A stretch of DNA of 37,499 nucleotides, from positions 1 to 37,499 of the forward strand of contig DATKHQ010000061.1 in NCBI GenBank assembly GCA_035510175.1, given 5' to 3'. A model generated the notes under the pieces. It was not told the DNA's origin, made no database searches, and was given only the letters and a program-made list of their open reading frames with translations. The position numbers and the translations under genes are program-made. The DNA is from Candidatus Sulfotelmatobacter sp. Lineage in GTDB: Bacteria; Acidobacteriota; Polarisedimenticolia; Polarisedimenticolales; DASRJG01. This document shows, piece after piece, positions 18,180 through 33,658 of the stretch (position 1 is the stretch's first letter; each line of letters starts with the position of its first letter).

Positions 18180-19136
18180 GTGAGTCCGAGAGTGCGCCTT
18201 CTCGCGAACGTCGCCGTCGGCGTAGCGCTTTGCGCGCTCGCCCAGCCGGCAGGGGCGGTGGAGGTCAAATACCTCTACCGGCTGTCGAATTTTTCCGGGG
18301 TCATCCCTTACTCCGATGTGGAGATGTGCGCGGACCCCGCCCATGACGAGATCTATGTCGGCGAAGGCGACCTGATCCGCGTGTTCAACGCCTCCGGGAT
18401 GGAGATCTACGACTTCAGCCACGACGCGATGAGCTACGGCGCGATCCTGGACATCGGCGTCATGCCGAGTGGCGACATCCTGGTCCTTTCCTACAGGCAA
18501 CCGACGGAGGCCAGGGCAGGGGGCTCGCAGGTCACGCGCTACAACTATCGGGGCGAGCCCCTGGGATCATTCGAGGTCCATGGGCTCCCGAGCGAGCTTG
18601 CCGGATTCACACCGAACCGCCTCGCGATCCGCCAGGATTCGCTCGTGTTCGCGAGCACCGCGTCCCTGCTCGTCGTGACAACCGATTTCGAGGGGACGTA
18701 CCGGCGTCACGTCGACCTTCTGGCGACGCTTCCCAAGAACGACAAGGCGAGAGAAGGCGCCGAGCTGGGCGGTTTCTACGTCGATGATCAAGGCGCCATT
18801 CTCTATACGATTCCAACGGCTTTCCGGGCTTTCCGGCTCAAGCCGGACGGCACCGCGGATTCGTGGGGGAAGCCGGGATCGGGCCCCGGAAGCTTCAGCG
18901 TCGTCGGCGCGATCCTGGCCGCGCCCAATGGATACACCTTGGTCGCCGATCGCGCGCGCGGTGCGGTCCTCGTGTTCGACCCGAGCCTGCGTTTCGTCCG
19001 CGAGTTCGGGAATCGGGGGCCAATCGTCGAGCAGCTCAACCGGCCGGGACTGATGGTCTTCGGCCGGGACGGGAAGCTGTATGTGAGTCAGCTCGGCTAC
19101 CACGGCCTCTCGGTCTTCGCGCTCACCACCCCCTGA
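18180..19136 (+). CDS. Exported NHL-repeat beta-propeller protein
   Basis: Signal-like VRLLANVAVGVALCALAQPAGA. Repeated propeller-blade motifs (GDILVLS, FYVDDQGAILY, GYTLVADRARGAVLVFD, GRDGKLYVSQLGYHGLSVF). Start is GTG 18180 or GTG 18192. Confidence 0.7.
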   Translation: MSPRVRLLANVAVGVALCALAQPAGAVEVKYLYRLSNFSGVIPYSDVEMCADPAHDEIYVGEGDLIRVFNASGMEIYDFSHDAMSYGAILDIGVMPSGDILVLSYRQPTEARAGGSQVTRYNYRGEPLGSFEVHGLPSELAGFTPNRLAIRQDSLVFASTASLLVVTTDFEGTYRRHVDLLATLPKNDKAREGAELGGFYVDDQGAILYTIPTAFRAFRLKPDGTADSWGKPGSGPGSFSVVGAILAAPNGYTLVADRARGAVLVFDPSLRFVREFGNRGPIVEQLNRPGLMVFGRDGKLYVSQLGYHGLSVFALTTP

Positions 19137-19187: not shown

Positions 19188-19248
19188 TGAGTGGGCCGCG
19201 GGCATGCGTTGTGCGATAACTCACGCCCACGTCTTTCAAGGAGGACTC

Positions 19249-20559
19249 ATGAAAGCGATCCGGATTCTTCTCATGGCGGGCGTCGCCGGCCTGGCGGTGA
19301 TCGGCCTCTCGCCGGTGTACGCGTTCCACTCCGGTGGCGTCGCCGAATGCGGCGGCTGCCACAGCATGCACGACGCGGCCTCGAACCCGCTCCTCCAGAA
19401 GGGCGATCCGAGCTCGACGTGCCTCAACTGCCACGAGCATGCGGGCGACACCGGCCCGAGCTCGTACCACATCTCGAGCGCCGTCGTCGACATGCCCGAC
19501 GGCGTGCCGCCGAAACAGCGCGGCCCGGCCGGCGACTTCGGCTGGCTGAAGAAGAACTACACCTACACGCTGCGCGGCACCCCGACGACCGACTTCGGGT
19601 ACACCCACGGCCACAACATCGTCGCGACGGATTTCGGGTACGTCGCCGATCCCGTCAACACCACGGCCCCCGGAGGGACGATGCCGTCCAACCAGCTCAG
19701 CTGCGTGAGTTGCCACGACCCGCACGACCGGACGCGTCGCCTCAACGACGGGACCCTCGTTTCGCCGAACCGGAACCAGGGGCAGACCTACGCACCGATC
19801 ATGGGCTCGGGCTCCTACGGTCTCGTTCCGCCGGCCGGTCTCGCGGCGGGCGTCTACCGGATCCTCGGCGACGTGAACTACGTTGCCTTCGACAACACGA
19901 CGTTCCCGGGCGTTCCCTCCGCGGTGACGCCGTCGACGTACAACCGGACGGAATTGGCGACGCAGACCCGCACCGCCTACGGCCACGCGACGACGGGCGG
20001 GTACGCGAGCTGGGGTCAGTGGTGCGCCACGTGCCACCCGAACATGCACAGCAACAACAACGCGCTGGCCCACCCGGTCGACCAGGCGCTCGGCACGACG
20101 ATCTCCAACAACTACAACGCCTACCTCAAGACGGGCGATCTGACCGGAACGCCGACCACGTCGTTCAACTCGTTGGTGCCCTTCACCGAATCGACGTCGG
20201 ACGTCGCCACGCTGGCCGCCCACGCCAAGACCGACGACTCGTACCTGAACGGGCCGGCCTCGAGCGATCGCGTGAACTGCCTCAGCTGCCACCGCGCTCA
20301 CGCGACGGCGTGGACCTACAGCCTCCGGTGGAACGGCGAGAACGAGTTCGTCACGATGGCCGACAGCACCGGCACGGCCGTGTACCCCGGCAAGGACGCC
20401 GTGGGCAACACGCCGGACGGCAAGGCGCTCAACCAGCAGACCCAGATCTTCAAGGGGTACACGGTGGCCGAGATGCAGGCCGGGTACTACGACCGGCCGG
20501 CGATCAAGTTCGCCGCCTATCAGCGCCAGCTCTGCAACAAGTGTCACATCCAGGATTGA
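19249..20559 (+). CDS. omcS: OmcS-family hexaheme c-type cytochrome (nanowire-forming cytochrome homologue)
   Basis: AAGGAGGA lies 5 nt before the ATG. Signal peptide ends VYA|FHSGGVAECGGCHSMH. Six CXXCH motifs (CGGCH, CLNCH, CVSCH, CATCH, CLSCH, CNKCH). Long runs match my recollection of G. sulfurreducens OmcS: CLNCH.HAGDTGPSSYHIS, GDFGW.KK, GHNIVA, TTAPGGT.P.NQL.C.SCHDPH, YRILG, PSTYNRTE..TQTR.AYG, VNCLSCHRAHA, KFA.YQR.LCNKCH..D. Confidence 0.9.
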   Translation: MKAIRILLMAGVAGLAVIGLSPVYAFHSGGVAECGGCHSMHDAASNPLLQKGDPSSTCLNCHEHAGDTGPSSYHISSAVVDMPDGVPPKQRGPAGDFGWLKKNYTYTLRGTPTTDFGYTHGHNIVATDFGYVADPVNTTAPGGTMPSNQLSCVSCHDPHDRTRRLNDGTLVSPNRNQGQTYAPIMGSGSYGLVPPAGLAAGVYRILGDVNYVAFDNTTFPGVPSAVTPSTYNRTELATQTRTAYGHATTGGYASWGQWCATCHPNMHSNNNALAHPVDQALGTTISNNYNAYLKTGDLTGTPTTSFNSLVPFTESTSDVATLAAHAKTDDSYLNGPASSDRVNCLSCHRAHATAWTYSLRWNGENEFVTMADSTGTAVYPGKDAVGNTPDGKALNQQTQIFKGYTVAEMQAGYYDRPAIKFAAYQRQLCNKCHIQD

Positions 20560-20598
20560 TCGTTCCTGTCTGTCGCGGATCCTCCCTGAAGGGCGGAA

Positions 20599-20628
20599 GG
20601 GGGCCGGTCGAACCGGCCCCCTTTTTTT
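20599..20628 (+). terminator. Rho-independent terminator after the omcS-like gene
   Basis: GGGGGCCGG (20599-20607), loop tcgaa, CCGGCCCCC (20613-20621), followed by TTTTTTT (20622-20628). It starts 40 nt after the stop codon. Confidence 0.85.
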
Positions 20629-20672: not shown

Positions 20673-22079
20673 ATGTTGAGGGCCTGCATCGCGATCGGGA
20701 TAATCGGGCTCCTCGCCGTCCCTGGAGACCGCGCCGCGCGTCCCGCGGTTGGGGTACCGAGGGAAGGCGGCTACGTCGCCGTTTACGCCAAGCCGCTTTC
20801 ACCCGCGGCCGCCGGACTCACGCTCACGCTGGGCGGAGTCTCCGCCGTCCGGGAGGACGGCACCGCAGCGCCGCTGACGCTGACGATGCCGAGCTATCCC
20901 GATCCGGGCCCTCCCCGGCAACGGCTGCTGGCCTGGGGCTTCGTGCCTGCCGGAGCGTACGCGGGGCTCGCGATCAAGGTGCGCTCGGCCCGCGCGAGGA
21001 CCGACGGCGAGGGGCACGATCTTGCGGTCGGGACGGATGCTCCCGCAGCCAAGCTCCCGTTCCTCGCAGGGCCGCGCAGCGCCCTCGTCGCCACCGTCGA
21101 GCTCGACGTCGGAGCCTCGCGAAAGTCGGCCGACGAGCTCGCACCCGTGTTCGTGGCGACGATCCCGCCGACGCTCGCCTCGGGCCTGACGGGAGCGGTG
21201 ACGAGCCGCGGAACCGGCGTCGTCTCCTTGTTCGACAAGGTTTCGGGTCAGGTCGCCTCCGCGATCGCCGTCGGGCGGGCCCCGTCCGCGATGGCGATCG
21301 ACGACCTGAGAAACCGCCTTTATGTGGCCATCGGCGGGGACGACGCCGTCGCGACCCTCGACTTGCTCTCCCGTTCCGTGCTCGGCGTGGTACGGCTGCG
21401 CGGGGGCGACGAGCCGGTCTCGCTCGGGTTGACTCCGGACCGGCGCACCTTGCTGGTCGCCAACGCGGGCTCCTCGAGCGTCACGGTGTTCGACGCGTCG
21501 GGCCCGACGCTCGTCGAGCGGACGCGCGTCGAGGTCGGGAGCGGCCCGCGCTATCTCCTGGTCGACCGTGCCGGAACGCGGGCGTGGGTGTTCTGCGCCG
21601 ACGAGGACCGGGTGGTCGCACTCACCCTTCCGACGGGCGCTCTCGCCGGATCGGTGTCCTCCCCCGGCGGCCCCATCCGCGGGGATTTCAGCAAGGACGG
21701 GACCCGCCTGTACGTCCTTCACGCGTACTCGGCCTACCTGGACGTCGTGGACGCGTCGACGCTCGCGGTCACGCAGCGCGTGTTCGTCGGGCCGAAGTCG
21801 GTATCCATCAAGGTGGATTCCCAGACGGACAGGATCTACCTCGGGTTCAAGGGCTCGAAATCGATCTCCGTCTACGATCCGGCCGGACTGCTTCCCATCG
21901 ACGAAATCCGGACAGAAGGAGGCGCCGACTTCCTCACGATCGACGGCCAAGGGAACAATCTTTGCGTCATCGATTCCCTCAGGGGCGAGATTCGCCTCGT
22001 CCGGCTCGTCGGGAAGACGGTCGCGGCGCAGGTCGACCTCCCCGAGCCAAGTGAGGTCGCGCTCCTGGGCGAAAGGTGA
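20673..22079 (+). CDS. Exported protein: Ig-like N-terminal domain (DUF4382-like) plus YVTN/YncE-type beta-propeller
   Basis: Signal MLRACIAIGIIGLLAVPG. Repeated roughly 40-residue blades (GRAPSAMAIDDLRNRLYVA, PVSLGLTPDRRTLLVANAGSSSVTVFD, GPRYLLVDRAGTRAWV, FSKDGTRLYVLHAYSAYLDVVD, DSQTDRIYLGF). Confidence 0.8.
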   Translation: MLRACIAIGIIGLLAVPGDRAARPAVGVPREGGYVAVYAKPLSPAAAGLTLTLGGVSAVREDGTAAPLTLTMPSYPDPGPPRQRLLAWGFVPAGAYAGLAIKVRSARARTDGEGHDLAVGTDAPAAKLPFLAGPRSALVATVELDVGASRKSADELAPVFVATIPPTLASGLTGAVTSRGTGVVSLFDKVSGQVASAIAVGRAPSAMAIDDLRNRLYVAIGGDDAVATLDLLSRSVLGVVRLRGGDEPVSLGLTPDRRTLLVANAGSSSVTVFDASGPTLVERTRVEVGSGPRYLLVDRAGTRAWVFCADEDRVVALTLPTGALAGSVSSPGGPIRGDFSKDGTRLYVLHAYSAYLDVVDASTLAVTQRVFVGPKSVSIKVDSQTDRIYLGFKGSKSISVYDPAGLLPIDEIRTEGGADFLTIDGQGNNLCVIDSLRGEIRLVRLVGKTVAAQVDLPEPSEVALLGER

Positions 22080-24286
22080 CGGATTGCGTGGGGAGATCCG
22101 AGCAGAGGCGATTGCGGGGACGGCGGGGCCTTCCGCTCCTCCTCGTGGCGCTCGCGGCGGCGCTCGGCCCGGCCCGACCCGCGGCTGCGGACGACGAGCT
22201 CAACGGGTACCTCGAGCTGACCGGCGCCGCGTCGCGGCTGAACACCGAGGATGCGACCGGGGCGAGCACCGACGAGACCGCGCGATCGTTCCTGCAGCGC
22301 TACAGCCTCAACTTCGCGCACCGCTTCTTTCCGAACCTCGAGTTCCGCGTCGGTGGCCTTTACGAGCACGAGCGTCTGTCGACCGACCTCTCCGGCATCG
22401 AGAGCGTGGGCAACCGCCAGCGCGTCCTTCCGTACGCCCTGTTCACGCTCCGGACGCAGATCGTCCTCGCCGAGATCGGGTACGACCGGCGAACGGAGCG
22501 GTTCGACAACGATCTGTCCGTCTCGAAGCTTACGCAGGAGAACTGGCGGGCGAATTTCGGCTGGAACCCGCTCGATCTCCCGCGACTGCGCCTCGAGCTG
22601 TCCCGGAGGAACACGTTCGACCTGGGGCGAGAGGGGCTGGACACGACGGAGGATCGCGCGCAGCTGGGCATGCGCTACAGCGCGGAGACCTACGAGGTGA
22701 ACTACCGCGGATCGCTGGAGCGCGATACGGACCACATCCACGGCGGGGCCGTGGAGACGAACTTCCAGAGCGCCCACGCGGCCTGGGGGGACGCGTGGCT
22801 CGACCGGCGCCTCACGTTGAGCACGGACTACACGGTGAGCTACCGCGAGACGACGGCGACCGGCTCGAGCGCGGGGGAGATCATCCAGTCCGTGAACGCC
22901 GTCGCCGGCCTCTCGTCGATCGACGACACGCCGGATCACGATCCCCTCAACCCGAATGCCGCGCTGATCGACGGCAACCTGACCGTCGGCGCCGGGGTGG
23001 ACCTGGGCCTCCCCCCGCCGGGAGGGGACATCCGGCCCCGCAACATCGGTCTCGATCTCGGTTTCGCCAATCAGCTCAACACGATCCTGGTGTGGGTCGA
23101 CCAGACGCTCCCGCCGTCGATCGCGGGTTCGTTCTCCTGGAAGATCTACTCGAGCGACGACAACTTGAACTGGACGCTCACCCAGACCCTGGTCACGGCT
23201 CCGTTCGGGCCGTTCGACAACCGGTTCGAGATCCGCTTCCCCGCGCTGGTCACGCGATACGTCAAGCTCGTGGTCTCGCCGCTGTCGCCGATCGTTCCGG
23301 ATGCGACGAGCTGGCCCCAGATCCTCGTGACCGAGCTCGAGCCGCAGCTGCGCACGGCGGCGTCGGGCGTCGAGAACCACACCTCGGAGGTGTCGCAGCT
23401 GTTCAACGGCAACTTCAGGGCACGGCTGCTGAACGTGCCGGCGTTCTACTACGAGCTCGGCTACTTCCTCTCGAATCCCGGCACGGGGCCCACGCAGTGG
23501 ACGCTCTCGAACGGACTGTCCGTGATCCAGGCGCTCAGCCCGATCCTGACCGGACAGGCCCGTCTCTCGCGGGAGGACCGGCAGGAGCGCATCGGCAGGC
23601 AGACCGCATACCTGTTCAGCGGGGCGCTCACCGCGACCCCGATTTCGACCGTCCAGGAAAGCCTGGTGGTCTCGGCGGTGAACGAGCAGGGGGACTTCGG
23701 GCGGGATACCGCATCGGCCCTCTTCTCGAGCGCGGCGGAGCTCTATCGGGGGATCGGCGCCAATCTGGTGGTGGGCCGCTCGGTCATCCGGCCCCACGAG
23801 GGCGGGCAGTCGATTTCCGACACGGGCGAGATCGGCGTCACCCTGAACCCGAACTCGCAGCTGACGGTCAATCTCCTGCTCCAGGATCGGGTGACGGATA
23901 CGACGTTCCCGACGCCGGCTCAGCCCGAGCAGCGCGACGACACGCGCGCGGCGGAGATCGGCGCCGCCTACCGCCCGCTGCGCTCCCTCTACCTTTTCGC
24001 CTCGACACGCGCGGAGCGGAGCAATCAAACCGGGTCCCGGACGCTACGCAACTACGCGCTGAGCTGGGCTCCCTTCCCGGACGGGACGCTTCACTTCAGC
24101 GTGTTCTACGATTCGACCTACCACACGGAGCTGGCCGAGACGGAGCAGACGCTCGTTCCGTCCGTGCGGTGGGACGTCACGTCGCGGATCTACCTCCAGA
24201 CGTCGTATCAGGATCTTCGAACGGATTCGGTCCTCGGGTCGACGCGGACCAAGGTCTGGACGGCGACGGTTCACGCGGCGTTCTAA
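22076..24286 (+). CDS. Predicted outer-membrane beta-barrel protein carrying an internal discoidin (F5/8 type C)-like domain
   Basis: Arg-rich signal peptide; alternating-hydrophobicity strands (FLQRYSLNFAHRFF, LEFRVGGLYEHE, YALFTLRTQIVLAEIGY); C-terminal TKVWTATVHAAF ending in Phe (OMP beta-signal). Start is GTG 22076 (GTGA overlap) or GTG 22088, which has AAGGTGA 8 nt upstream. Confidence 0.7.
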   Translation: MTDCVGRSEQRRLRGRRGLPLLLVALAAALGPARPAAADDELNGYLELTGAASRLNTEDATGASTDETARSFLQRYSLNFAHRFFPNLEFRVGGLYEHERLSTDLSGIESVGNRQRVLPYALFTLRTQIVLAEIGYDRRTERFDNDLSVSKLTQENWRANFGWNPLDLPRLRLELSRRNTFDLGREGLDTTEDRAQLGMRYSAETYEVNYRGSLERDTDHIHGGAVETNFQSAHAAWGDAWLDRRLTLSTDYTVSYRETTATGSSAGEIIQSVNAVAGLSSIDDTPDHDPLNPNAALIDGNLTVGAGVDLGLPPPGGDIRPRNIGLDLGFANQLNTILVWVDQTLPPSIAGSFSWKIYSSDDNLNWTLTQTLVTAPFGPFDNRFEIRFPALVTRYVKLVVSPLSPIVPDATSWPQILVTELEPQLRTAASGVENHTSEVSQLFNGNFRARLLNVPAFYYELGYFLSNPGTGPTQWTLSNGLSVIQALSPILTGQARLSREDRQERIGRQTAYLFSGALTATPISTVQESLVVSAVNEQGDFGRDTASALFSSAAELYRGIGANLVVGRSVIRPHEGGQSISDTGEIGVTLNPNSQLTVNLLLQDRVTDTTFPTPAQPEQRDDTRAAEIGAAYRPLRSLYLFASTRAERSNQTGSRTLRNYALSWAPFPDGTLHFSVFYDSTYHTELAETEQTLVPSVRWDVTSRIYLQTSYQDLRTDSVLGSTRTKVWTATVHAAF
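22934..23346 (+). other. Discoidin/F5-8-type-C-like domain inserted within the barrel ORF
   Basis: AALIDGNLTV..NIGLDLGFANQLNTILVWVDQ..FSWKIYSSDDNLNWTL..RFEIRFPALVTRYVKLVV..ILVTELEP follows the DG-x-T / VDLG / W-Y-S-DG-W / ARYVRL / E-E pattern of discoidin domains. Confidence 0.5.
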
Positions 24287-24299
24287 AAGGACGGTCGGC

Positions 24300-24893
24300 A
24301 TGCGCACGATGAGATCGGTCTCCTACATGGCACTCGCGGTCTCGCTCCTCCCCGCTTCCGGGTGTGCGGGCCGGCACGCCGCCACGAACACCTTTCACGA
24401 GCCCACGATGGACTTCAGCCTCGTGCACACGGTGGCGGTCCTGCCGTTCTCCAACCTCACGCCGACCCAAACGGCGGCCGACCGGGTCCGGGGCGTGTTC
24501 GTCACGATGCTCCAAGCCCAGGGAGGGGAGATGTACGTGCTGCCCCTCGGCGAGGTCCAAAAGGGACTTTCCCGGACGGAGATCCAGCGCGCGGACCAAC
24601 CCTCCGCCGAAGACGTCGTCGTCCTGGGGAAAGCGCTCAGTGCCGACGCGGTGATCACCGGGAGCGTGATGGAGTACGGAGAAGCGCGCTCCGGCTCCGC
24701 TTCGGCGAACTACGTCTCGGTCTCGGCGCAGATGCTGGAGACCAAGACCGGCCGCCTCGTCTGGAGCGCGCAGTCGACGAAGGGGGGAGTGACCGCCGCG
24801 GACCGGATGTTCGGAGGAGGCGGCCAGCCCATGAACGTGATCACCGCCGATGCCGTGAACGAGCTGCTCGACAAGCTCTTCAAGGCGAAGTGA
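24300..24893 (+). CDS. Lipoprotein with a CsgG/LpoB/DUF799-like fold
   Basis: Lipobox LLPASG|C; VAVLPFSNLT....ADAVITGSVMEY pattern typical of the CsgG/LpoB/TolB-N-like family. AAGGA upstream of the ATG. Confidence 0.75.
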   Translation: MRTMRSVSYMALAVSLLPASGCAGRHAATNTFHEPTMDFSLVHTVAVLPFSNLTPTQTAADRVRGVFVTMLQAQGGEMYVLPLGEVQKGLSRTEIQRADQPSAEDVVVLGKALSADAVITGSVMEYGEARSGSASANYVSVSAQMLETKTGRLVWSAQSTKGGVTAADRMFGGGGQPMNVITADAVNELLDKLFKAK

Positions 24894-25960
24894 GCGCCGT
24901 GCTCCCGCTAGGAGCGCCTCTTCTGGCTCTGGCCGCCCTGGCCGGCCCCCTTCGCGTGGCGGTCCTCCCCGTGGAGAACCTCACCGGCCGCGTGCTCGAC
25001 GGTGCTCCGATCGAGCGGGCCTGGCGGGGGGCGCTCGCCGCGAGCGGCATGGAGGTACTGGACGATCCGACGCGTGGGGCCTTGATGGACCGTCATCGGG
25101 TGCGGTACGTGGGCGGCGTCTCGCCGGACCTCGCCACCGCCTTCCGCGAGGAGGCGCAGGTCCAGGCGGTGATGATCACCTCCGTGGAGCGCTGGATCGA
25201 GCACGCGCCTCCGGTCCTCTCGCTGCATGCCCGCCTCGTCTCGACCGAGGCCGAGCCCTCGATCCTCTGGGTCGGCGGCCTCGGAGCGACGGGCGAGGAC
25301 CACCCCGGGTTCCTCGGGCTCGGAGTCGTGGACGACCCGAAGGTGCTTCTCGCGCGGGTGGTCGCGGATCTCGCGGCGTCGGTCAAGGGGGCTGTCTCGG
25401 GCGGGGCCTCCCGCACGCCGTCCGGCGAGCGCCGGTTCCGGCCCAAGCTTGCGTTCGCCAGCGTGGTCGCCGGCGAAGAAGGAGGGTCGCTTCGGGTCGC
25501 CGTGCTTCCCTTCACGAACCGCACGGACCGCCGGCGCGGCGGGGATCTCGTCGCGGCGCACTTCGTCGCGGCGCTCGCCGGGCGCCCCGGTATCCGAGTC
25601 GTGGAGCCCGGCATCGTCCGCGAGGTACTTCTCAAGCTCCGGGTGATCCCCGAAGGAGGGATCCCCTACGCACAGGCCGAGCTGCTCCGCGAGACGCTCG
25701 GGGCCGATCTCGTGCTGATGGGGGAGGTCCTGGATTACAGCGATGCGGACGTCGACGGTCCCCCTCCCATCGTCGATTTCACCGTGCAAGCGCTCGACGC
25801 CGCCCATCGCCGCGTGGCGTGGTCCGCGTTCAGCCACTCCACCGGTACGGACGGCGTCTGGTTCTTCGAGCGGGGCCGGCTCCGGACCGCCCACGCGCTC
25901 GCTGCGGCGATGGCGCGCTCCGCGGTCGAGGCGCTGCTCACCGCGAAAGGAAAGCCGTGA
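24890..25960 (+). CDS. Exported protein with two tandem CsgG/LpoB-like domains
   Basis: Two copies of the motif (RVAVLPVENLTG ... and RVAVLPFTNRTD ... GADLVLMGEVLDY). The GTG start overlaps the upstream stop (GTGA at 24890-24893). Confidence 0.7.
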   Translation: MSAVLPLGAPLLALAALAGPLRVAVLPVENLTGRVLDGAPIERAWRGALAASGMEVLDDPTRGALMDRHRVRYVGGVSPDLATAFREEAQVQAVMITSVERWIEHAPPVLSLHARLVSTEAEPSILWVGGLGATGEDHPGFLGLGVVDDPKVLLARVVADLAASVKGAVSGGASRTPSGERRFRPKLAFASVVAGEEGGSLRVAVLPFTNRTDRRRGGDLVAAHFVAALAGRPGIRVVEPGIVREVLLKLRVIPEGGIPYAQAELLRETLGADLVLMGEVLDYSDADVDGPPPIVDFTVQALDAAHRRVAWSAFSHSTGTDGVWFFERGRLRTAHALAAAMARSAVEALLTAKGKP

Positions 25961-27660
25961 GAGTACGAATCCCCATCCTCGCCGCAGCACTCTCCGCCGG
26001 GCTCGCATCCTGGGCCCTCGCGGCACCGCCGGCGGCATCCTCGTCGCCTCCCGAGCTCCCACTGATCCAGGGGCGGCGGGCGATCGCCACGGTCAACGGC
26101 CAGCCCGTCACATGGGGCGCCTTCCGGGAGGCGCTTGCGTCCGTTCACGAGAACGCGCCGGAGGCCACCAAGCGCGCGAAGCAGGACCCGCAGGCGCTGC
26201 TCGATCGGCTGATCACGGGAAAGCTGATCGTCCAGGAGGCGCGCAACATCGGTCTCGACCATGAGCCGGCGTACACCGCGGCGCTCGAATCGTTTCGGCT
26301 CGACACGCTCCAGAAGATGGTGCTCGACCGTCCGGCCTCCGAGGTCAAGAAGCCGTCCGATGCGGACGTCCGCTCCCTGTACGTCACGCGGGTCGGGGTC
26401 GCGCGGATCGACTCGGTGCTCTTCAAGACCAAGGCCGAGGCGGACGCGTTCTCCGCCGCCGTCAAGGGAGGGCGCGCGTTCGCCGATGCGGCGCGCGCGG
26501 CGCAGGGCTCCGGCGCGACCTGGCAGCCGAACGAGACGATCAAGCTGGCCGAGGCGCAGACCGAGGTCGCGGGTGCGATCGCGGTCCTCCATCCAGGCGA
26601 GACAAGCAAAGCCCTCCAGGTACAGGACGGATGGACGGTGGTCACCCCGCACGAGGTGACGGTCCCCGACGATCCCGTCGCGCGGAAGGAATCCGAGGAT
26701 CAGGCCCTCGACTACGCGCGACTGCAAGCGGTGGGCGCCTACACGCGCGACCTCCGGAAGCGCTACGCGAAGGTGGACGAGGCGCTCCTGGCGAGCCTCG
26801 ACTTCGAGGCGAAGGAGCCCGGCTTCGCGCGGCTCAAGACGGACGAGCGCGTGGTCGCTAGGGTCACCGGCCAGCCGCCGATCACGGTCGCCGAGATCGC
26901 CAAGGCCGTGGAGGCGAATTTCTTCCACGGGCTCGAAGGCGCAATCGCGAAACACCAGGTCAACCCGCGCAAGCCCGTCGCCTTCGACGAGATCCTGGTC
27001 CGGCGTCTGACCGTCGCGGAGGCGACGCGTCTCGGCATCGAGTCCTCGGCCGACTACCGGGAGCGAAAGGAGCAGTTCGAGGATGGGGCGCTGTTCGACG
27101 CGTTCGTGAAGCGCGTCATCGTTCCCGACGTCCGGGTCGCCCCCGCCGAGGCGCGCGCGTACTACGACGCCCACGCGGACAGCTACGCGACCCCCGCGAT
27201 GCTCCGCCTCGATTCCATCGCGTTCGGGAAGCGATCCGACGCGGAGGTCGCCCTCAAGAAGGTCCGCGACGGCGCCGATTTCGGCTGGCTCAAGCAGAAT
27301 GCGGCTGGCCGGACCGACGCGAGCGACGTCATGAATCTTAACGGCGGAGTCTACTCGGTCAACGGCGTCGATCCCGGAATGAACAAGGCGCTCGCCAATC
27401 CCAAGGACGGGGATGCCCGTCTCTTCTCGGCGGACGACGGGACGAGCTACGTGATCCTGGTGCGGGAGGTGTTCCCGCCGAAGATCAAGCCTTTCGAGGA
27501 GGCGCAGGAGAACGCCACGCGTCAGGTCCTGAACGAGAAGCTCAAGAAGTCCCTGGACGACTGGACGAAGAAGCTGAGATCGGCGTACGAAGTGAAGACG
27601 TTCGTGACCCCCGCGCAGCTCGAAGCGCTCGTCAAAAGGGAATTCGGAGTCAAAGCCTGA
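25957..27660 (+). CDS. SurA/PrsA-like periplasmic chaperone with two parvulin (PpiC)-like domains
   Basis: Signal VRVRIPILAAALSAGLASWALA; SurA-type N-terminal helices (LLDRLITGKLIVQEARNIGL); two parvulin-like segments (ARIDSVLFKTKAEADAFSAAVKGGRAFADAA and LRLDSIAFGKRSDAEVALKKVRDGADFGWL). GTGA overlap with the upstream stop. Confidence 0.75.
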   Translation: MRVRIPILAAALSAGLASWALAAPPAASSSPPELPLIQGRRAIATVNGQPVTWGAFREALASVHENAPEATKRAKQDPQALLDRLITGKLIVQEARNIGLDHEPAYTAALESFRLDTLQKMVLDRPASEVKKPSDADVRSLYVTRVGVARIDSVLFKTKAEADAFSAAVKGGRAFADAARAAQGSGATWQPNETIKLAEAQTEVAGAIAVLHPGETSKALQVQDGWTVVTPHEVTVPDDPVARKESEDQALDYARLQAVGAYTRDLRKRYAKVDEALLASLDFEAKEPGFARLKTDERVVARVTGQPPITVAEIAKAVEANFFHGLEGAIAKHQVNPRKPVAFDEILVRRLTVAEATRLGIESSADYRERKEQFEDGALFDAFVKRVIVPDVRVAPAEARAYYDAHADSYATPAMLRLDSIAFGKRSDAEVALKKVRDGADFGWLKQNAAGRTDASDVMNLNGGVYSVNGVDPGMNKALANPKDGDARLFSADDGTSYVILVREVFPPKIKPFEEAQENATRQVLNEKLKKSLDDWTKKLRSAYEVKTFVTPAQLEALVKREFGVKA

Positions 27661-27678: not shown

Positions 27679-29643
27679 ATGAGCCTGCGTGGGTGGGGAT
27701 TCCGGTCTTGGGGGGCGAGCGCTGCTGCGGCGCTCGCGGTCGCCGTCCTGCAGGCCCCGATCCTCGGGGCGGAGACCCGGAAGTTCCAGTCCAAGTCGTG
27801 CATCGACTGCCACGGCGCTTTCGTCCAGAAGCTGGCTCCGCTCAAGGTCTTGCACCCCGGCGTGAAGGAGGGGAATTGCGAGAGCTGCCACCTCCGGCAC
27901 GGCATCGTGCCCAAGCTTCTCTTGAAACAGGAAGGCAACGCGCTCTGTCTGAGCTGCCACGCGAAAGAGACGATCGGGCTCGACAAGGCCAACGTGCACT
28001 CGGCGCTCAAGACGGGGAAGTGCGTCCAGTGTCACGACCCGCACGGCTCGAGCGCCCCCCACCTTCTCGCCGGTGAGGGGGCGGGCGCCTGCACGTCCTG
28101 CCACGACCGCAAAGCGTTCGAGCGGCCGGTCGTGCACGCCGTGCTCAAGACGGAGGGCTGCCGGGCTTGCCACCTCGCGCACAGCTCGTCGGAGGCGAAC
28201 CTGCTCGTCAAGGCGGAGGTCCCGCTCTGCCTGTCGTGCCACGATCCGGGCAAGCCGGCGTTCAAGACCGCGCACGGCGGGTACCCCGTCGAGAAAGCCT
28301 CGTGCGTGGGCTGCCACGATCCCCATTCCGCCGAGCAGCCCAAGCTGCTCAAGGCGAGCGCTCACGCCCCTACCGCGGGCGGGAGCTGCGACGCATGCCA
28401 CTCCGGGGCCACGTCGGCGAAGCCCTTCGGTCTCAAGGCCGAGGGCGCGGCGCTGTGCACCTCGTGCCACGACGCCGCGCAGCTCAAGGCGGGCGGGACC
28501 GTCGTCCACGCCCCGTTCGACTCCGGGGACTGCACGTCGTGCCACGATCCGCACGCCTCGGCCCAACCCAAGCTGCTCGCCCGGAAGGGCAATGAGCTCT
28601 GTACGAGCTGTCACACCGATCAGGGCGTCACGCCCGCGTTCCCGCATCCGGCGGTCGACAACGGCTGCGTGACCTGCCACGCGCCGCACGCGGCCAAGAA
28701 CGCGAAGCTCCTCGAGAAGCCGGGCTCGGAGCTGTGCGCCGACTGCCACGGTGAGATCGTCGCCGCCAAGCCGAAGGTCCCGCATGCCCCGTTCGACGCC
28801 GGCGAGTGCGTCGCCTGCCACGATCCCCATGGGTCCTCGACGAAGGGGATCCTCAAGAACCGCCAGGACCAGGTCTGCTTCACGTGCCATTCGGATCAGG
28901 AGCAGGAGTTCAAGCAGGCGACCGTCCACGCTCCGGTGCTGGCGGGAAGCTGCTCCGGCTGCCACCAGCCTCACGGCGGCACGGAGCCGAAGCTGCTCAA
29001 GGCCTCTGGGGCGGCGCTGTGCGCGAGCTGCCACGAAGACCTGATCAAGGAGGAACCCGGCGGGTCGAACCATCCGCCCTTCGCGTCCGGCGACTGCCTC
29101 ACGTGTCACGTTCCGCATGCGTCGTCCGCGCCGCGCCTGATCGGCCAACGGACCGCGGACCTCTGCTACACCTGCCACTCGGACGTGCAGGACGCGTTGA
29201 AGGCGGGGAAGGTCCGGCATGCCTCGGTCGAGGCGGGCGAGTGCACGAAGTGTCACAGCCCGCACAAGTCGAAGCTTCCGAAGTTGCTGCTGGCTCCGGC
29301 ACCCGATCTGTGCGTCACCTGCCACGCCGCGATCAAGACGAAGCTCGCCTCGGAACAGGTGCACCCTCCGGCTGCCCGCGACTGCCTCCGGTGTCACGCT
29401 CCCCATCAGTCCGCGGAGCCCTCGCTGCTCGTCTCGTCTCAGGGATCGCTGTGCGCCGGGTGTCACGACGTCCGGTCCGAGCCGTTTTCGAAGGCGCACC
29501 TCGGCATTGACCCATCCGTGATGAACTGCGTCAGCTGCCACGAGCCTCACGCGTCGAAGGACCCGAAGCTCTTCAAGCCCCAGGTGCACGCGCCGTTCGA
29601 GTCCGGCGCCTGCGAGGAGTGTCATGTCGTTCCGTCGAAGTGA
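27679..29643 (+). CDS. Multiheme c-type cytochrome, 26 CXXCH motifs (13 paired-CXXCH modules)
   Basis: I counted 26 CXXCH in 654 aa. Signal peptide present. Module of about 50 aa: C-x2-CH-DPH-x5-7-KLL-x5-7-LC-x2-CH-x10-13-VH-x-P-x4-6. Confidence 0.9.
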   Translation: MSLRGWGFRSWGASAAAALAVAVLQAPILGAETRKFQSKSCIDCHGAFVQKLAPLKVLHPGVKEGNCESCHLRHGIVPKLLLKQEGNALCLSCHAKETIGLDKANVHSALKTGKCVQCHDPHGSSAPHLLAGEGAGACTSCHDRKAFERPVVHAVLKTEGCRACHLAHSSSEANLLVKAEVPLCLSCHDPGKPAFKTAHGGYPVEKASCVGCHDPHSAEQPKLLKASAHAPTAGGSCDACHSGATSAKPFGLKAEGAALCTSCHDAAQLKAGGTVVHAPFDSGDCTSCHDPHASAQPKLLARKGNELCTSCHTDQGVTPAFPHPAVDNGCVTCHAPHAAKNAKLLEKPGSELCADCHGEIVAAKPKVPHAPFDAGECVACHDPHGSSTKGILKNRQDQVCFTCHSDQEQEFKQATVHAPVLAGSCSGCHQPHGGTEPKLLKASGAALCASCHEDLIKEEPGGSNHPPFASGDCLTCHVPHASSAPRLIGQRTADLCYTCHSDVQDALKAGKVRHASVEAGECTKCHSPHKSKLPKLLLAPAPDLCVTCHAAIKTKLASEQVHPPAARDCLRCHAPHQSAEPSLLVSSQGSLCAGCHDVRSEPFSKAHLGIDPSVMNCVSCHEPHASKDPKLFKPQVHAPFESGACEECHVVPSK

Positions 29644-30943
29644 CGGCCTCCTCGCCCGGCTCGCGGGAAGCGCCATGGCCTCGGTTTTGCTCGCGGGGCC
29701 GGTCGGTGCCGCGCCTCCGTCCGCGCGCCCGGCCGCCGAGGCGGACGACGCGAAGTTCAAGCTCAAGCCCGGAGCCCACGGCAAGGTCTGTCTCGGCTGC
29801 CATTCCGATTTCGAGGACAAGCTGAAGCTGCCCGCGATCCACACGCCCGTCAAGGCGGGCGCGTGCGTGGATTGCCACAGCCCGCACGCCTCCGACCACG
29901 GGAAGATGCTCGCGAAGCCCCCCGAGGCGATCTGCGTGTCGTGCCACGCCACGATCGTCCCGGCCGAGGCGAAGAGTGTGCACGCGGCGCTGCGGAAGGG
30001 GGGATGCGTCGCTTGCCACGACCCGCACGCCTCGCCGAACAAGAACCAGCTCCTCAAGCCGGTCGGCGAGCTGTGCGTCGGTTGCCATCAGGACATCGGG
30101 GCTCAGATCGCGAAGGTCAAGTTCCACCACCCGCCGGTGAGCACCGGCTGCGTCACCTGCCACGACCCGCATGCGTCGGCGAAGTCGGAGACGCTTCTGG
30201 TGCGCGACCAGGGGTCGCTCTGCGCGTCCTGTCACAAGCCGGACCAGCCGGCGATGACCAAGGCCCACATGGGCTATCCCGTGTCGAAGGGGCGGTGCAC
30301 GTCGTGCCACGACCCCCACGGCTCCGACGCTCAGGCGATGCTCTGGCCGAGCGTGCACAAGCCGGTCGCGACCCGCTCGTGCGGCCAGTGCCACAACGAC
30401 CCGGGGTCCGCGAACGCCCTGAAGACCAAGCGCCAGGGGATCGACGTCTGCCGCGGCTGCCATGGCGAGGTCGTGGGCGACGCGATGAACGCAAAGCGCC
30501 TCCACTGGCCGGTGGCGGACAAGATCGCGTGCCTGAACTGCCACGGTCCGCACGCGACCAAGGCGCCGAAGCTCGTGCGCGGGCCGCTGACATCCGTGTG
30601 CGGAAACTGCCACGCCGACACGATCCGGCGTCAGGAGCGCTCGGAAACCAAGCACCCGCCGGTCGAGTCGGGAGACTGCACGAGCTGTCACGCGCCCCAC
30701 GGATCGGACAACCCGTTCCTGCTCGCCGCCCCCGACGAGCTTCAGCTGTGCGGGACCTGTCACGACTGGCAGAACCACACCGGGCACCCGATCGGTCCGA
30801 AGGCGGTGGACCCCCGCAACAAGAACCTCACCGTGAGCTGCGAGAGCTGCCATCGCGCCCACGGCACGGAGTTCAAGCACTTCGCGCATCTGGACACGAA
30901 GGGGGACCTCTGTGTCCAGTGCCACGAAAGGTTCCGGAGGTAA
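29624..30943 (+). CDS. Multiheme c-type cytochrome, 16 CXXCH motifs
   Basis: I counted 16 CXXCH in 439 aa with the same paired module. ATG 29624 is preceded by GAGGAG (29614-19) and overlaps the upstream gene by 20 nt. Alternative ATG at 29675. Confidence 0.85.
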   Translation: MSFRRSDGLLARLAGSAMASVLLAGPVGAAPPSARPAAEADDAKFKLKPGAHGKVCLGCHSDFEDKLKLPAIHTPVKAGACVDCHSPHASDHGKMLAKPPEAICVSCHATIVPAEAKSVHAALRKGGCVACHDPHASPNKNQLLKPVGELCVGCHQDIGAQIAKVKFHHPPVSTGCVTCHDPHASAKSETLLVRDQGSLCASCHKPDQPAMTKAHMGYPVSKGRCTSCHDPHGSDAQAMLWPSVHKPVATRSCGQCHNDPGSANALKTKRQGIDVCRGCHGEVVGDAMNAKRLHWPVADKIACLNCHGPHATKAPKLVRGPLTSVCGNCHADTIRRQERSETKHPPVESGDCTSCHAPHGSDNPFLLAAPDELQLCGTCHDWQNHTGHPIGPKAVDPRNKNLTVSCESCHRAHGTEFKHFAHLDTKGDLCVQCHERFRR

Positions 30944-30946
30944 CCC

Positions 30947-31840
30947 ATGGCCCGAACCGCCGGAGCCGGACTGACGATGCTCGCCGTGCTGCTCGGCGCG
31001 CCCGCCGCGAGCGCGGAGGGAGTCAAGCTGCGGCCGGGACCGGGAATCTACGCCGACGCGAAGAACGCCCCCCTCAGCCTGCCGGAGGGCGTCGCGTGCG
31101 CCGCGACGTCGCTCGTCGTCGCCGACACCGGACACGGCCGCTTCGTCATATACGAGCTGGCCGATCGCCTCGCCACGCCGAAGACCGACTTTCAGGTGCC
31201 CGAGGTTCCCTACCCGATCCGCGTCCGCCTCGACGCGCACGGCGAGATCCTCGCCCTGGATGGAAAATCGCGGCGCATCGCAAGGCTCACCGCCGCCGGC
31301 GCGTTCCAGGGATTCGTCGGCGTGGCCGACGCGCCCGAACCCGTGATCCGGAGCTTCGCCGTCGGCGCCGACGGCCGCCTCTACGTCCTCGACATCGCCG
31401 GGGAGCGGGTGCTCGTGACGGACCCGGCCGGGAAGGTCGAGCGCCGGGTCGCCCTTCCCGCGGACTGCCGGTTCCCCTCGGACGTGACGGTCGATGCCCA
31501 GGGGCGCCTCTACGTGCTCGACAGCGTCGGTGCGCGGATCTTCGCCGCGGCCGCCGGCAAGGCGGAATTCGTCGCGATCGGAGCGAGCCTGAAGGATGAT
31601 CTCGCGTTCGCGACAAGCCTCGGCCTCGACTCCGCGGGGCACCTCGTCGTGATCGACCAGACGGGCGGCGGGATCGTGTTCCTGTCGACGGACGGCTCCT
31701 TCCGCGGGCGGCAGTCGGGGATGGGCTGGACCGACGGGCTGTTGCGCTGGCCGTCCTCGGTGTGCAGCGACGGCCGTGGCGGGCTGTACGTCGCGGATCG
31801 CGAGAACGACCGCATCGCGGTTTTCACCGAGGTGCCCTGA
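30947..31840 (+). CDS. Exported NHL-repeat beta-propeller protein
   Basis: GGAGG lies 8 nt upstream. Signal MARTAGAGLTMLAVLLGAPAASA. Blades include LVVADTGHGRFVIY, DGRLYVLDIAGERVLVTD, QGRLYVLDSVGARIF, GHLVVIDQTGGGIVF, GGLYVADRENDRIAVF. Confidence 0.8.
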   Translation: MARTAGAGLTMLAVLLGAPAASAEGVKLRPGPGIYADAKNAPLSLPEGVACAATSLVVADTGHGRFVIYELADRLATPKTDFQVPEVPYPIRVRLDAHGEILALDGKSRRIARLTAAGAFQGFVGVADAPEPVIRSFAVGADGRLYVLDIAGERVLVTDPAGKVERRVALPADCRFPSDVTVDAQGRLYVLDSVGARIFAAAAGKAEFVAIGASLKDDLAFATSLGLDSAGHLVVIDQTGGGIVFLSTDGSFRGRQSGMGWTDGLLRWPSSVCSDGRGGLYVADRENDRIAVFTEVP

Positions 31841-31876: not shown

Positions 31877-33658
31877 TCATCGCGGAGCCTCACCCGCCTC
31901 CGCGGTCGCGAGCAGACGCTGCAGCTCGACGTCGCCCGGCGAGAAACGGGCCGCGGCGGTCAGCTCCACGACCGCCTCCTGTTTTCGGCCGCGGCGCAGA
32001 AGGGCGATGCCGAGCGGCCGGTGCGCCTTCTCGTACGACGGATCGCGGCGCAGCACCTCTTGCAGGCGCTCGATCGCTTCCTCGTTTGCGCCCTCGAGCA
32101 GGAGGGCGTAGCCGAGGTCGAAGATCGCGCCGACGTATCCGGGATCGAGCCGCACCGCTTCCCGGAATTCGGCGATCGCGCCGTCCATGTCGCCGCCGAG
32201 CGCCAGACCGCTCCCGAGGTTGTTGTGCGCCTTGACGTTGTTCGGGTCGTAGCGGATCGCCTCGCGGAATTGCGCGATCGCCTCGTCGCGGCGGCCGAGC
32301 TTGATGAACGCTTCGCCCAGGTTGTTGTGCGCGCCCGCGTGGGAGGGCTCGATCGCGAGCGCGCGCTCGTACTCCTCCACCGCCCGGCCGGGCCGTCCGG
32401 TCTTGGCATAGGCGTTCGCGAGGTTGAACCGTGCGGTCATGCTGTCCGGGCGAATCATCGCCCACTGCGTGTAGAACGCCACCTCGTCGAAGTAGGGCGC
32501 GCGAGAGCGGGAGAGCGCGCCGAGAGCGAGGGCGAGGAGGGCCGCGGCCACGAGGACCGTTCGCTCTCGCGCCGCCCGTCGCGCGATCTCCGAGGCGAGC
32601 GCGGCGCCCGCCAGCACGAGCCCGAGGACCGCCGGGGCGACGTACCGCTCGTCGAACAGCGTCTCCTGCCGCACGAGATTCGCGGTGGGAAGCTGCACGA
32701 CGACGAACCAGCCGATTCCGAAGACGAGCACGGATCGGACGCCGCGTCCGGACCGCCATGCCGTCAGTGCCGCCAGCGCGAGCACGAGCCCGACGACCAC
32801 GAGCTTCGAGGGCGACAGCCACGCCGCGACCGGCGGCTCGTAGAGCAGCGCGCGGAACGGCGTCAGCGTGACCTCGAGCGCGTAGACGTACGTCAGGGGG
32901 ACGTACCCCGGCGTTCCCGTCGACATCTGTCCGCCGGGAAGCACCACGGCGCGGACCGCGGCGTAAGCGGCGAGGACGACGAGGAACGGTGCGGCGCGCG
33001 TGGCGAGGGCCGTCGCGCTCCGTCGCGGCGCTCCGGCAGGCCGGCTCAGCCCGGCCGCTTCGGCCAGCGCGATGACCCCCGGCGTCACGATCGCCGCTTC
33101 CTTGCACAGCAGCCCGGCCGCGAAGACCGCAGCGCTCGCGATCGCGGCCCCCACGGTCCCTCGCAGATAGATCCAGACGGCGGCGACCATGCTCGACGTC
33201 GCCAGCAGCGTGTCGCGACCGGAGACGGGATGGACACACGACGAGACGACCGGGTGGAGGATGAAGATCGCCGCCCCGGCCGCCGCCATCCCAGGGGCGA
33301 GCCCGAAGCAGGGTCTTCGGAACAGCCCGTAGGTCAGCACCGCCAGCGCTCCGGCGAGCGCCACGTTGGCCGCGTGGAACGGCCGGGGGTCGTCCCCCCA
33401 CACGCGGCGCTGGACGAGGAAGCTCGCGGAGGTCACCGGCCGGTAGTAGGGGAGGCCTTCGTAATACGGTCGAGCGAAAAGCTTCGCGATGTCCGCGGCC
33501 GAGCGGGGGACTGCCGGCTTGAGGATCAGGAGGAAGTCGTCGTAGAGAAATCCGTTCCGCAGCGCCGGGAGGTACGCTGCGAGGACGAGCACGAGCAGCA
33601 GGGTCGCCGCCGCGACGGTCTTCCGGTTCGGGGTCGCGGCCTCTTCCAACGTGAGCAT
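31877..33658 (-). CDS. Integral-membrane TPR protein (TMTC/PMT_2-like GT-C N-terminal domain plus C-terminal TPR repeats)
   Basis: MLTLEEAATPNRKTVAAATLLLVLVLAAYLPALRNGFLYDDFLLI (DD motif of TMTC-like proteins), about 9-11 helices, then 5-6 TPR units (AHNNLGEAFIKLGRRDEAIAQFREAIRYDPNNVKAHNNLG..). The track extension to 34426 was rejected. Confidence 0.8.
   Translation of the reverse strand: MLTLEEAATPNRKTVAAATLLLVLVLAAYLPALRNGFLYDDFLLILKPAVPRSAADIAKLFARPYYEGLPYYRPVTSASFLVQRRVWGDDPRPFHAANVALAGALAVLTYGLFRRPCFGLAPGMAAAGAAIFILHPVVSSCVHPVSGRDTLLATSSMVAAVWIYLRGTVGAAIASAAVFAAGLLCKEAAIVTPGVIALAEAAGLSRPAGAPRRSATALATRAAPFLVVLAAYAAVRAVVLPGGQMSTGTPGYVPLTYVYALEVTLTPFRALLYEPPVAAWLSPSKLVVVGLVLALAALTAWRSGRGVRSVLVFGIGWFVVVQLPTANLVRQETLFDERYVAPAVLGLVLAGAALASEIARRAARERTVLVAAALLALALGALSRSRAPYFDEVAFYTQWAMIRPDSMTARFNLANAYAKTGRPGRAVEEYERALAIEPSHAGAHNNLGEAFIKLGRRDEAIAQFREAIRYDPNNVKAHNNLGSGLALGGDMDGAIAEFREAVRLDPGYVGAIFDLGYALLLEGANEEAIERLQEVLRRDPSYEKAHRPLGIALLRRGRKQEAVVELTAAARFSPGDVELQRLLATAEAGEAPR

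Follow-up and report, generated by a model that had tools for sequence, protein, structure and literature searches.

What is achieved by two adjacent genes whose products together carry 42 heme-binding motifs? The question is posed by positions 27,679 to 30,943 of a 37,499-nucleotide stretch of DNA (contig DATKHQ010000061.1; "the window" below means this whole stretch). A preliminary description of the locus had read the two genes as a 26-heme and a 16-heme modular cytochrome of one operon and had suggested that they feed electrons from the inner membrane or the menaquinol pool to the base of an OmcS-like filament, or else form a second polymer. Overall, this interpretation is partly supported. 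Comparison with other genomes identifies the two genes as orthologues of oscI and oscJ, members of a known omcS-companion (osc) operon, and as the split form of a 42-heme protein that other phyla encode in one piece.

The cytochrome pair and its heme arrays

27679..29643, + strand: OscI-like 26-heme c-type cytochrome, 654 amino acids, Sec signal peptide, array (ab)4c(ab)8c
29624..30943, + strand: OscJ-like 16-heme c-type cytochrome, 439 amino acids, own signal peptide, array (ab)4c(ab)3c

The longer open reading frame (ORF) contains 26 CxxCH motifs spaced 22-28 amino acids apart, with 53 His residues and 52 Cys residues, every Cys falling inside a motif; the shorter contains 16 CxxCH motifs at a spacing of 23-30 amino acids, with 32 Cys and 37 His residues. 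These numbers, which bear out the heme counts first proposed, lie far beyond chance: the remaining four frames of the cytochrome region contain no CxxCH at all, and the six frames of the window together contain 48, made up of the 26 and 16 of the pair and 6 in the OmcS-like gene. Third-position GC content is 0.88 in the 26-heme ORF and 0.89 in the 16-heme ORF, a signature of real genes, in a window of about 69% G+C, and gene callers return identical genes of 654 and 439 amino acids on near-identical contigs. Profile searches with Pfam PF09699 (Paired_CXXCH_1; gathering score, 20.6 bits) yielded 13 stretches in the 26-heme protein (E = 1.4e-149, 486 bits) and 8 in the 16-heme protein (E = 2.9e-85, 280 bits), the same module numbers as had been counted before, and the TIGR01905 profile agrees with PF09699 on both cytochromes. 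The sole hydrophobic stretch of 19 residues in each protein is its N terminus, and neither has a transmembrane helix; because no Cys precedes the first heme motif, neither has a lipobox. Once mature, the 26-heme protein has a mass of about 65 kDa (about 81 kDa with hemes) and the 16-heme protein one of about 44 kDa (about 54 kDa with hemes), at 24-26 residues per heme.

The pair is closely packed with its neighbors. A gap of 18 nucleotides separates a peptidyl-prolyl isomerase (PPIase) gene from the 26-heme gene, the 26-heme and 16-heme genes overlap by 20 nucleotides, and 3 nucleotides lie between the 16-heme gene and a gene for an NHL-repeat beta-propeller. These junctions agree with the earlier placement of the pair in one operon, and the arrangement marks the two genes as a predicted translationally coupled pair in a nanowire-companion cluster.

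Both proteins had been portrayed as almost pure arrays of a two-heme module. The pairing of units stands, and the purity does not: the arrays alternate two single-heme units, a and b, and fall into segments that close with a c-type heme. The type a unit is LCxxCH followed after about 13 residues by a His, and the type b unit is [G/D]CxxCHxPH. At a segment end, the b unit is extended (spacing, 28 residues; spare His residues, two), and the c-type heme after it lacks a spare His. The 26-heme protein, (ab)4c(ab)8c, is in this notation an array of 9 + 17 hemes, and the 16-heme protein, (ab)4c(ab)3c, one of 9 + 7. A long motif is common to hemes 7-9 and 24-26 of the 26-heme protein and to hemes 7-9 of the 16-heme protein. 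Between the two proteins, the nine hemes at the N-terminal end are mutual best paralogues.

All 26 motifs are invariant among 30 aligned 26-heme proteins, as are 24 of the non-motif His residues, with 2 more nearly so; among 67 sequences of the 16-heme type, 15-16 spare His residues are conserved for the 16 hemes. Since spare His residues are conserved at one per heme in both families, bis-His ligation is predicted, as had been surmised, and these alignments make it a well-supported proposition that essentially every heme is ligated in this way. Tandem Repeats Finder detected no array in the cytochrome DNA, and the repeat copies within it are only 60-79% identical, which rules out recent tandem duplication and agrees with the view that the modules have diverged at the DNA level.

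An exact copy of the 16-heme protein is public as HUC42866.1 and occurs on 72 contigs, and the exact NHL protein is public as HUC42867.1, from a 429,797-bp contig of a third-party annotation (TPA) soil metagenome-assembled genome (MAG) labeled Candidatus Sulfotelmatobacter sp. Two other soil contigs (L082 and L083) carry both cytochrome genes without any difference, and a third soil contig differs by a single synonymous change, in the 26-heme gene. The label of the source MAG (Acidobacteriota, Terriglobales) calls for caution (HUC42851.1, HUC42866.1, HUC42867.1). The 90% cluster of the same NHL protein includes a partial member labeled Anaeromyxobacter sp., and the nearest relatives of the gene cluster are Acidobacteriota and Nitrospirota MAGs, at only about 55% identity.

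OscI, OscJ, and the fused 42-heme proteins

Skennerton et al. described in 2017 an operon with a four-gene core for a beta-propeller of six blades, a 16-heme protein, a 26-heme protein, and a PPIase, and reported that all four proteins have a signal peptide and no transmembrane helices (PMC5539420). Its carriers were SEEP-SRB1, Geobacter, Anaeromyxobacter, Desulfurivibrio, and Ca. Desulfofervidus, and its physiological function was stated as not known (PMC5539420). The 26-heme protein of Geobacter sulfurreducens is GSU2495 (PMC2996986; 10.1101/2025.11.06.686851). In a later report, the genes carry the osc names, with GSU2501 as oscC, GSU2495 as oscI, and GSU2494 as oscJ; roles are proposed there for OscH in folding, OscEFG in secretion, and OscD in morphology, and OscI and OscJ are listed merely as periplasmic cytochromes (PMC13194489). 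An eight-gene block, GSU2500-GSU2493, always lies behind a GSU2501-type hexaheme gene, and Geobacter sp. L1geo is named as a carrier of the block (10.1101/2025.11.06.686851).

The window cluster has the gene order B?-C-D-E-F-G-H-I-J-K, which is the order in Geobacter sp. L1geo, in AOG1, and in loci from many phyla, where OscI and OscJ are 45-56% identical to the window proteins. In tblastn searches, all ten window proteins were collinear in several loci of Geobacter, Nitrospirota, Thermodesulfobacteriota, Desulfobulbaceae, and Acidobacteriota. Identities to the Geobacter loci L006, L018, L037, and L039 were 49-52% for OscI and 45-54% for OscJ, the Geobacter comparison being with Geobacter sp. 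AOG1, L1geo, and other loci rather than with G. sulfurreducens strain PCA, and L006 and L037 have all ten genes in the window's order. Across the Geobacter, Nitrospirota, and Acidobacteriota loci, the 26-heme protein is 49-56% identical to the products of the 26-heme genes.

The likeness to OscI and OscJ extends to several features. The window proteins have 26 and 16 hemes, and each begins with a signal peptide and lacks transmembrane helices; their genes are adjacent and in the same order, with a PPIase gene upstream and a beta-propeller gene downstream, and the D to G genes and an OmcS-like hexaheme gene lie upstream of the pair. The difference lies in the host, which is a soil MAG of 69% GC labeled Acidobacteriota and not a member of the Desulfuromonadia. 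Sequence and gene order together identify the two window genes as orthologues of OscI (GSU2495) and OscJ (GSU2494). The pair and its operon had already been described (Skennerton et al. 2017; the osc cluster), and the finding itself is not novel: the window adds one more carrier, a soil MAG labeled Acidobacteriota, of a system already called widespread.

A database search with the 26-heme protein as the query gave a second view of the pair. Among the best 120 matches, which the counts cover, 73 have exactly 42 CxxCH motifs and 32 have exactly 26; the 42-motif matches are about 1050-1090 amino acids long and come from Zixibacteria, Krumholzibacteria, Latescibacterota, and Gemmatimonadaceae. A set of 80 genome loci was assembled from a scan with a five-sequence alignment, and many of these loci end at contig ends. 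An adjacent 26 + 16 pair is present in 61 of them (including four Geobacter loci) and a fused 42-heme ORF in six (L047, L051, L059, L073, L075, and L078; example proteins, P0001 and P0003). The taxa with the fused form also include Acidobacteriota, an Anaeromyxobacter-labeled MAG, Ignavibacteria, and Gemmatimonadota.

In the spacing of their hemes, the 42-heme proteins run colinear first with the 26-heme protein and then, after a junction of 22-27 residues, with the 16-heme protein. At every split locus the 16-heme protein has its own signal peptide, and in the window's clade the tail of the 26-heme protein (CxxCH[IV]VxK) combined with the mature start of the 16-heme protein (KFKLKPGAxGKxC) resembles the fused linker, reproducing its length and, in part, its sequence. 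When the heme units were compared with those of the Geobacter and Nitrospirae orthologues, 35 of the 42 had their best match at the equivalent position, where about 1 would be expected by chance; the array is therefore ancient, with each position individually conserved. The fused proteins, named as members of the cytochrome c3 family, are 32-41% identical to the window's 26-heme protein. They are like the window pair in conserving all 42 motifs and the spare His residues and in having NHL, E-, F-, G-, and H-like neighbors, and unlike it in being one polypeptide with one signal peptide. These comparisons indicate that the pair is the split form of one colinear 42-heme protein seen in other phyla and that selection would act on the 42-heme total. 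The searchable literature, which excludes subscription journals, yielded no mention of 42-heme proteins.

Heme counts are nearly invariant across phyla, in line with the earlier suggestion that the length is selected. A check of the orthologues for random module loss or pseudogenization left few deviants, all of them explained: CX4CH variants, one 22-motif protein, one in-frame TAA, and otherwise contig ends. The first heme of the 26-heme protein in L025, and heme 14 of the 16-heme protein in L054 and L076, are CX4CH variants (CVAGGCH, CSTEQCH); these occupy conserved heme positions, and the apparent heme losses there are therefore motif variants. The first protein of L076 has 22 motifs plus a motif-free tail of 71 amino acids, a form that a frameshift or an assembly error may explain. 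In a Krumholzibacteriota MAG (L080:11800-11900), a fused-type gene has an in-frame TAA just before heme 26, giving apparent ORFs of 25 + 17 motifs; this TAA may reflect a recoded stop, a pseudogene, or an error in sequencing.

The signal peptides of the 26-heme proteins vary. About one-third to one-half of the OscI orthologues have a lipoprotein-type signal, with a lipobox Cys 10-25 residues before heme 1 (L002, L007, L010, L033-L036, L048, L052, L054, L056, L063-L066, L069-L073, L077, and L079; P0009, P0037, P0087, P0099, and others). The window's and the Geobacter 26-heme proteins have an ordinary signal peptide and no lipid anchor. The lipoprotein signal of the many orthologues that have one implies that the N-terminal end of a wire built from them would be tethered to the membrane, with heme 1 beside it.

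Fold and possible function

AlphaFold2 modeled the 26-heme protein, with 30 homologues, at a mean predicted local distance difference test (pLDDT) score of 86.8 and a predicted template modeling (pTM) score of 0.67. The fused 42-heme protein P0001 was modeled at a pLDDT of 78.7 and a pTM of 0.57, with confident residues across the junction between hemes 26 and 27. A Foldseek search of the PDB with the 26-heme model returned a single entry, 6r2q_A (E = 7.6e-7; target template modeling [TM] score, 0.56; root mean square deviation, 5.1 Å over 239 columns), and the same entry was the only PDB relative in sequence searches, with E values of 9e-18 for the 26-heme protein and 1.8e-20 for the 16-heme protein. 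The sequence library names it "Cystathionine beta-synthase," and the Foldseek library names it "Structure of the Mtr complex"; we take this chain of 265-333 residues as the decaheme subunit MtrA, the sequence-library name being an annotation error. The profile for DmsE-family decaheme cytochromes, TIGR03508, scored 308.5 bits with the 26-heme protein, as the sum of four repeated stretches, against a cut-off of 192.2 bits, and 178.8 bits, below that cut-off, with the 16-heme protein. Both proteins are predicted from these matches to be built from MtrA/DmsE-like units.

Paired CxxCH units are shared with MtrA and DmsE, and MtrA is an elongated bis-His wire at the interface of the periplasm and the outer membrane. 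MtrA has 10 hemes, however, in place of the 26, 16, or 42 seen here, and it sits inside the MtrB porin, whereas no MtrB/PioB-family gene was detected in the window cluster: there was no Pfam or NCBIfam match to a porin of this type among the scanned cluster genes, and an analogous barrel is possible. Membership in two other families was considered and rejected. The HmcA (16-heme) profile NF045713 gave 41.3 bits against a cut-off of 400, and the Foldseek comparison with 1h29 gave an E value of 0.23 and a TM score of 0.08; Skennerton et al. likewise reported that the 16-heme protein is unrelated to hmcA (PMC5539420). For the GSU1996/c7 type, Cytochrome_C7 and c3 scores were far weaker than those of Paired_CXXCH_1. 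The GSU1996-type dodecaheme proteins (c7-domain polymers) and HmcA resemble the pair in being long, multidomain, heme-dense, and periplasmic but are made of other building blocks.

The 10 hemes of MtrA span about 8 nm, or about 0.8 nm per heme. By this measure, we estimate lengths of about 20 nm for 26 hemes, about 13 nm for 16, and about 34 nm for 42. [quoted passage not shown]

Could such proteins serve the filament encoded beside them? We put at about even the chance that the filament machinery is served by a long periplasmic wire of bis-His hemes made up of the two proteins. Both would be exported by their own Sec signal peptides and have their hemes attached, and the C-terminal heme 26 of OscI would dock on the N-terminal heme 1 of OscJ, giving a continuous 42-heme bis-His wire. 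This wire would carry electrons, in either direction, from or to inner-membrane or periplasmic carriers, with its other end at the OscEFG outer-membrane apparatus or at the base of the hexaheme filament, and the PPIase and the NHL propeller would be its folding or docking partners. A filament feed line of the kind first suggested fits the synteny and is plausible. A geometric rather than a storage role is favored by the strict heme number, by the coinheritance of OscE, OscF, OscG, OscH, and OscK, and by the often lipoprotein-type N terminus of OscI. More tentatively, and with considerable doubt, we propose that the 42 hemes could be a cable of fixed length, running from the inner-membrane side to or through OscEFG and plugged into the filament base. 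It would be a core part of the machinery across phyla, comparable to the insulated wire formed by MtrA in MtrB and about four times as long, with the c-type hemes as joints or docking points.

Several points weigh against such a wire. The literature contains no experiment that ties OscI or OscJ to electron delivery. The c-type hemes that close the segments could be kinks. Four further observations argue that the pair is not essential: four cultured species respiring metals did not express the homologues (PMC5539420); a high-current G. sulfurreducens lineage, evolved on an anode over 17 years, carries a frameshift in oscJ (PMC13194489), which is therefore dispensable there; the small triheme cytochromes PpcA-E have been proposed to charge OmcS directly (PMC10954620); and transcription of gsu2495 was low under Pd(II) reduction (10.1101/319194), although the gene was upregulated in the biofilm of a gsu1771 mutant (10.1101/2023.02.27.530372).

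The dispensability seen in the anode-evolved lineage (PMC13194489) and the lack of induction in metal respiration (PMC5539420) would also suit a periplasmic electron store, a capacitor in which 42 low-spin hemes buffer respiratory electrons under fluctuating acceptors or donors with no fixed wiring; the very high heme density, the solubility, and the signal peptides of the proteins point the same way. A store should nevertheless tolerate a variable heme number, and the count is fixed at 26 + 16 or 42 with units that are positionally conserved; tight synteny with OscEFGH and the K genes would likewise be unexpected for a generic buffer, and we regard storage as unlikely. That synteny can be read in another way, with the heme array as an assembly factor: working with the PPIase and the NHL propeller, it would be a template, scaffold, or redox partner while the hexaheme protein is folded, secreted, or polymerized, for example by holding the hemes or His ligands of the subunit in the right state. 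The genes do lie between a chaperone-like PPIase and a propeller, in conserved synteny, and two reports describe the cluster as machinery for folding, secretion, and morphology (PMC13194489; 10.1101/2025.11.06.686851). The accessible literature, however, gives such roles to OscH, OscEFG, and OscD alone and none to OscI or OscJ, a 42-heme protein would be a costly scaffold, and the MtrA-like fold suggests conduction, so that a part in assembly seems to us improbable.

A wire used mainly for electron uptake would bring electrons inward, to periplasmic carriers, from a cathode or a syntrophic partner, as has been proposed for the sulfate-reducing partners of methanotrophic archaea. It would differ from the filament-serving wire in direction and not in mechanism, and bis-His chains are reversible. 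Enrichment of the operon in SEEP-SRB1 and Ca. Desulfofervidus and the metaproteomic detection of its cytochromes in seep sediments (PMC5539420) speak for this reading, but the G. sulfurreducens homologues showed no response on a cathode (PMC5539420), and the window's organism is a soil bacterium; we see only a slim chance that uptake is the main function. The least-supported alternative is an extracellular one, in which the pair is secreted and makes up a surface cable or another filament. Both proteins have the predicted shape of a long wire, and other, uncharacterized high-heme cytochromes of the Desulfuromonadia are predicted to be extracellular wires (PMC11492766). OscI and OscJ are, however, predicted to be periplasmic in G. 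sulfurreducens (PMC13194489), and the lipoprotein signal of many OscI orthologues tethers them to the membrane. No inter-subunit His or polymerization signature was found, no such filament has been reported, and no evidence emerged for the second polymer that the preliminary description had offered as an option; an extracellular role for the pair is in our judgment very improbable.

Within the nanowire cluster, OscI and OscJ are the only conserved members for which no function was found in the accessible literature. Diffusing triheme carriers have already been proposed. The strictly conserved 42-heme total, the natural fusions, the conserved unit positions, the MtrA-like fold, and the N-terminal lipid anchoring in many lineages make a cable of fixed length a concrete and testable proposal, and the natural 42-heme fusions would be good single-chain structural targets.

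The surrounding gene cluster

The boundaries of the cluster genes come from gene calls on near-identical contigs. Besides the two cytochrome genes, the cluster comprises the following features.

18180..19136, + strand: NHL-like or propeller-like ORF, possible OscB equivalent; weak ScyF NHL match, start codon uncertain
19204..20559, + strand: hexaheme OmcS homologue (OmcS/OscC family); 6 CxxCH motifs, mature N terminus FHSGGVAECGGCH
20595..20625, + strand: strong terminator-like hairpin; 14-bp stem with 9 G-C pairs, 3-nucleotide loop, T run
20673..22079, + strand: OscD-like YNCE-type beta-propeller, 468 amino acids; gene call, family profiles, and tblastn
22145..24286, + strand: OscE-like protein, 713 amino acids; signal peptide, C terminus ...HAAF; in 50 of 80 loci
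24300..24893, + strand: OscF-like lipoprotein, 197 amino acids; lipobox ...PASGC; GNA1162-like and LpoB families, weakly CsgG
24890..25960, + strand: OscG-like protein, 356 amino acids, no family match; in 58 of 80 loci
25957..27660, + strand: OscH-like SurA-type PPIase, 567 amino acids; PF13145 Rotamase_2, SurA_N
30947..31840, + strand: OscK-like NHL-repeat beta-propeller, 297 amino acids; PF01436 NHL, E = 8.5e-18; in 56 of 80 loci

The physical link to an OmcS-like gene that had been noted at the outset is borne out by the hexaheme protein, whose match to OmcS (PDB 6ef8) is full-length (residues 41-451 against 1-407; E = 1.6e-106). The hairpin lies directly 3' of this gene and before the downstream accessory genes, setting the OmcS-like gene apart from them, and a promoter-like site follows just past it, at positions 20676-20704. 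The OmcS-like gene may be expressed separately from, or above, the accessory genes, including those for the big cytochromes. An ORF resembling the possible oscB equivalent was found in 27 loci and in many of these lies upstream of the hexaheme gene.

The hexaheme genes beside fused-type loci are different. Their hemes are spaced in another way, and similarity to the OmcS homologue of the window was not detectable, phmmer being negative for most of them. Hexaheme ORFs of about 350-415 amino acids lie next to the NHL gene in several loci (L051:14209-15459, L059:14275-15471, L075:14294-15343, L078:14306-15343, and L048:15235-19792), and the hexaheme ORFs of fused-type and distant loci end with the last heme at the C terminus, as OmcS does. 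The hexahemes of fused-type and distant loci may represent a separate family of filament subunits.

The PPIase, OscF, OscG, OscK, and OscE genes co-occur with OscI/OscJ in 50-65 of the 80 loci. The PPIase gene is found upstream of the cytochrome pair in 65, and the OscF-like gene, in 59, is the best-conserved accessory gene (45-62% identity). The OscE-like protein had no Pfam, NCBIfam, or PDB match except a weak one to F5/8 type C; it is probably an outer-membrane protein and may be an outer-membrane barrel. At 713 amino acids it is about the size of MtrB.

The OscK-like gene is the last of the unit, and the next gene, for a membrane/TPR protein (31877-33658, - strand), is convergent with it. 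Just upstream of the cluster is a gene for a 951-amino-acid protein with VIT and von Willebrand A domains (15122-17977, - strand). Beyond the convergent gene, a protease of more than 1200 amino acids (33829-37499, + strand), with Trypsin_2, purple-acid-phosphatase N, and proprotein convertase P domains, runs out of the window. Spurious long ORFs overlap this protease gene and the membrane/TPR gene, as expected at 69% GC.

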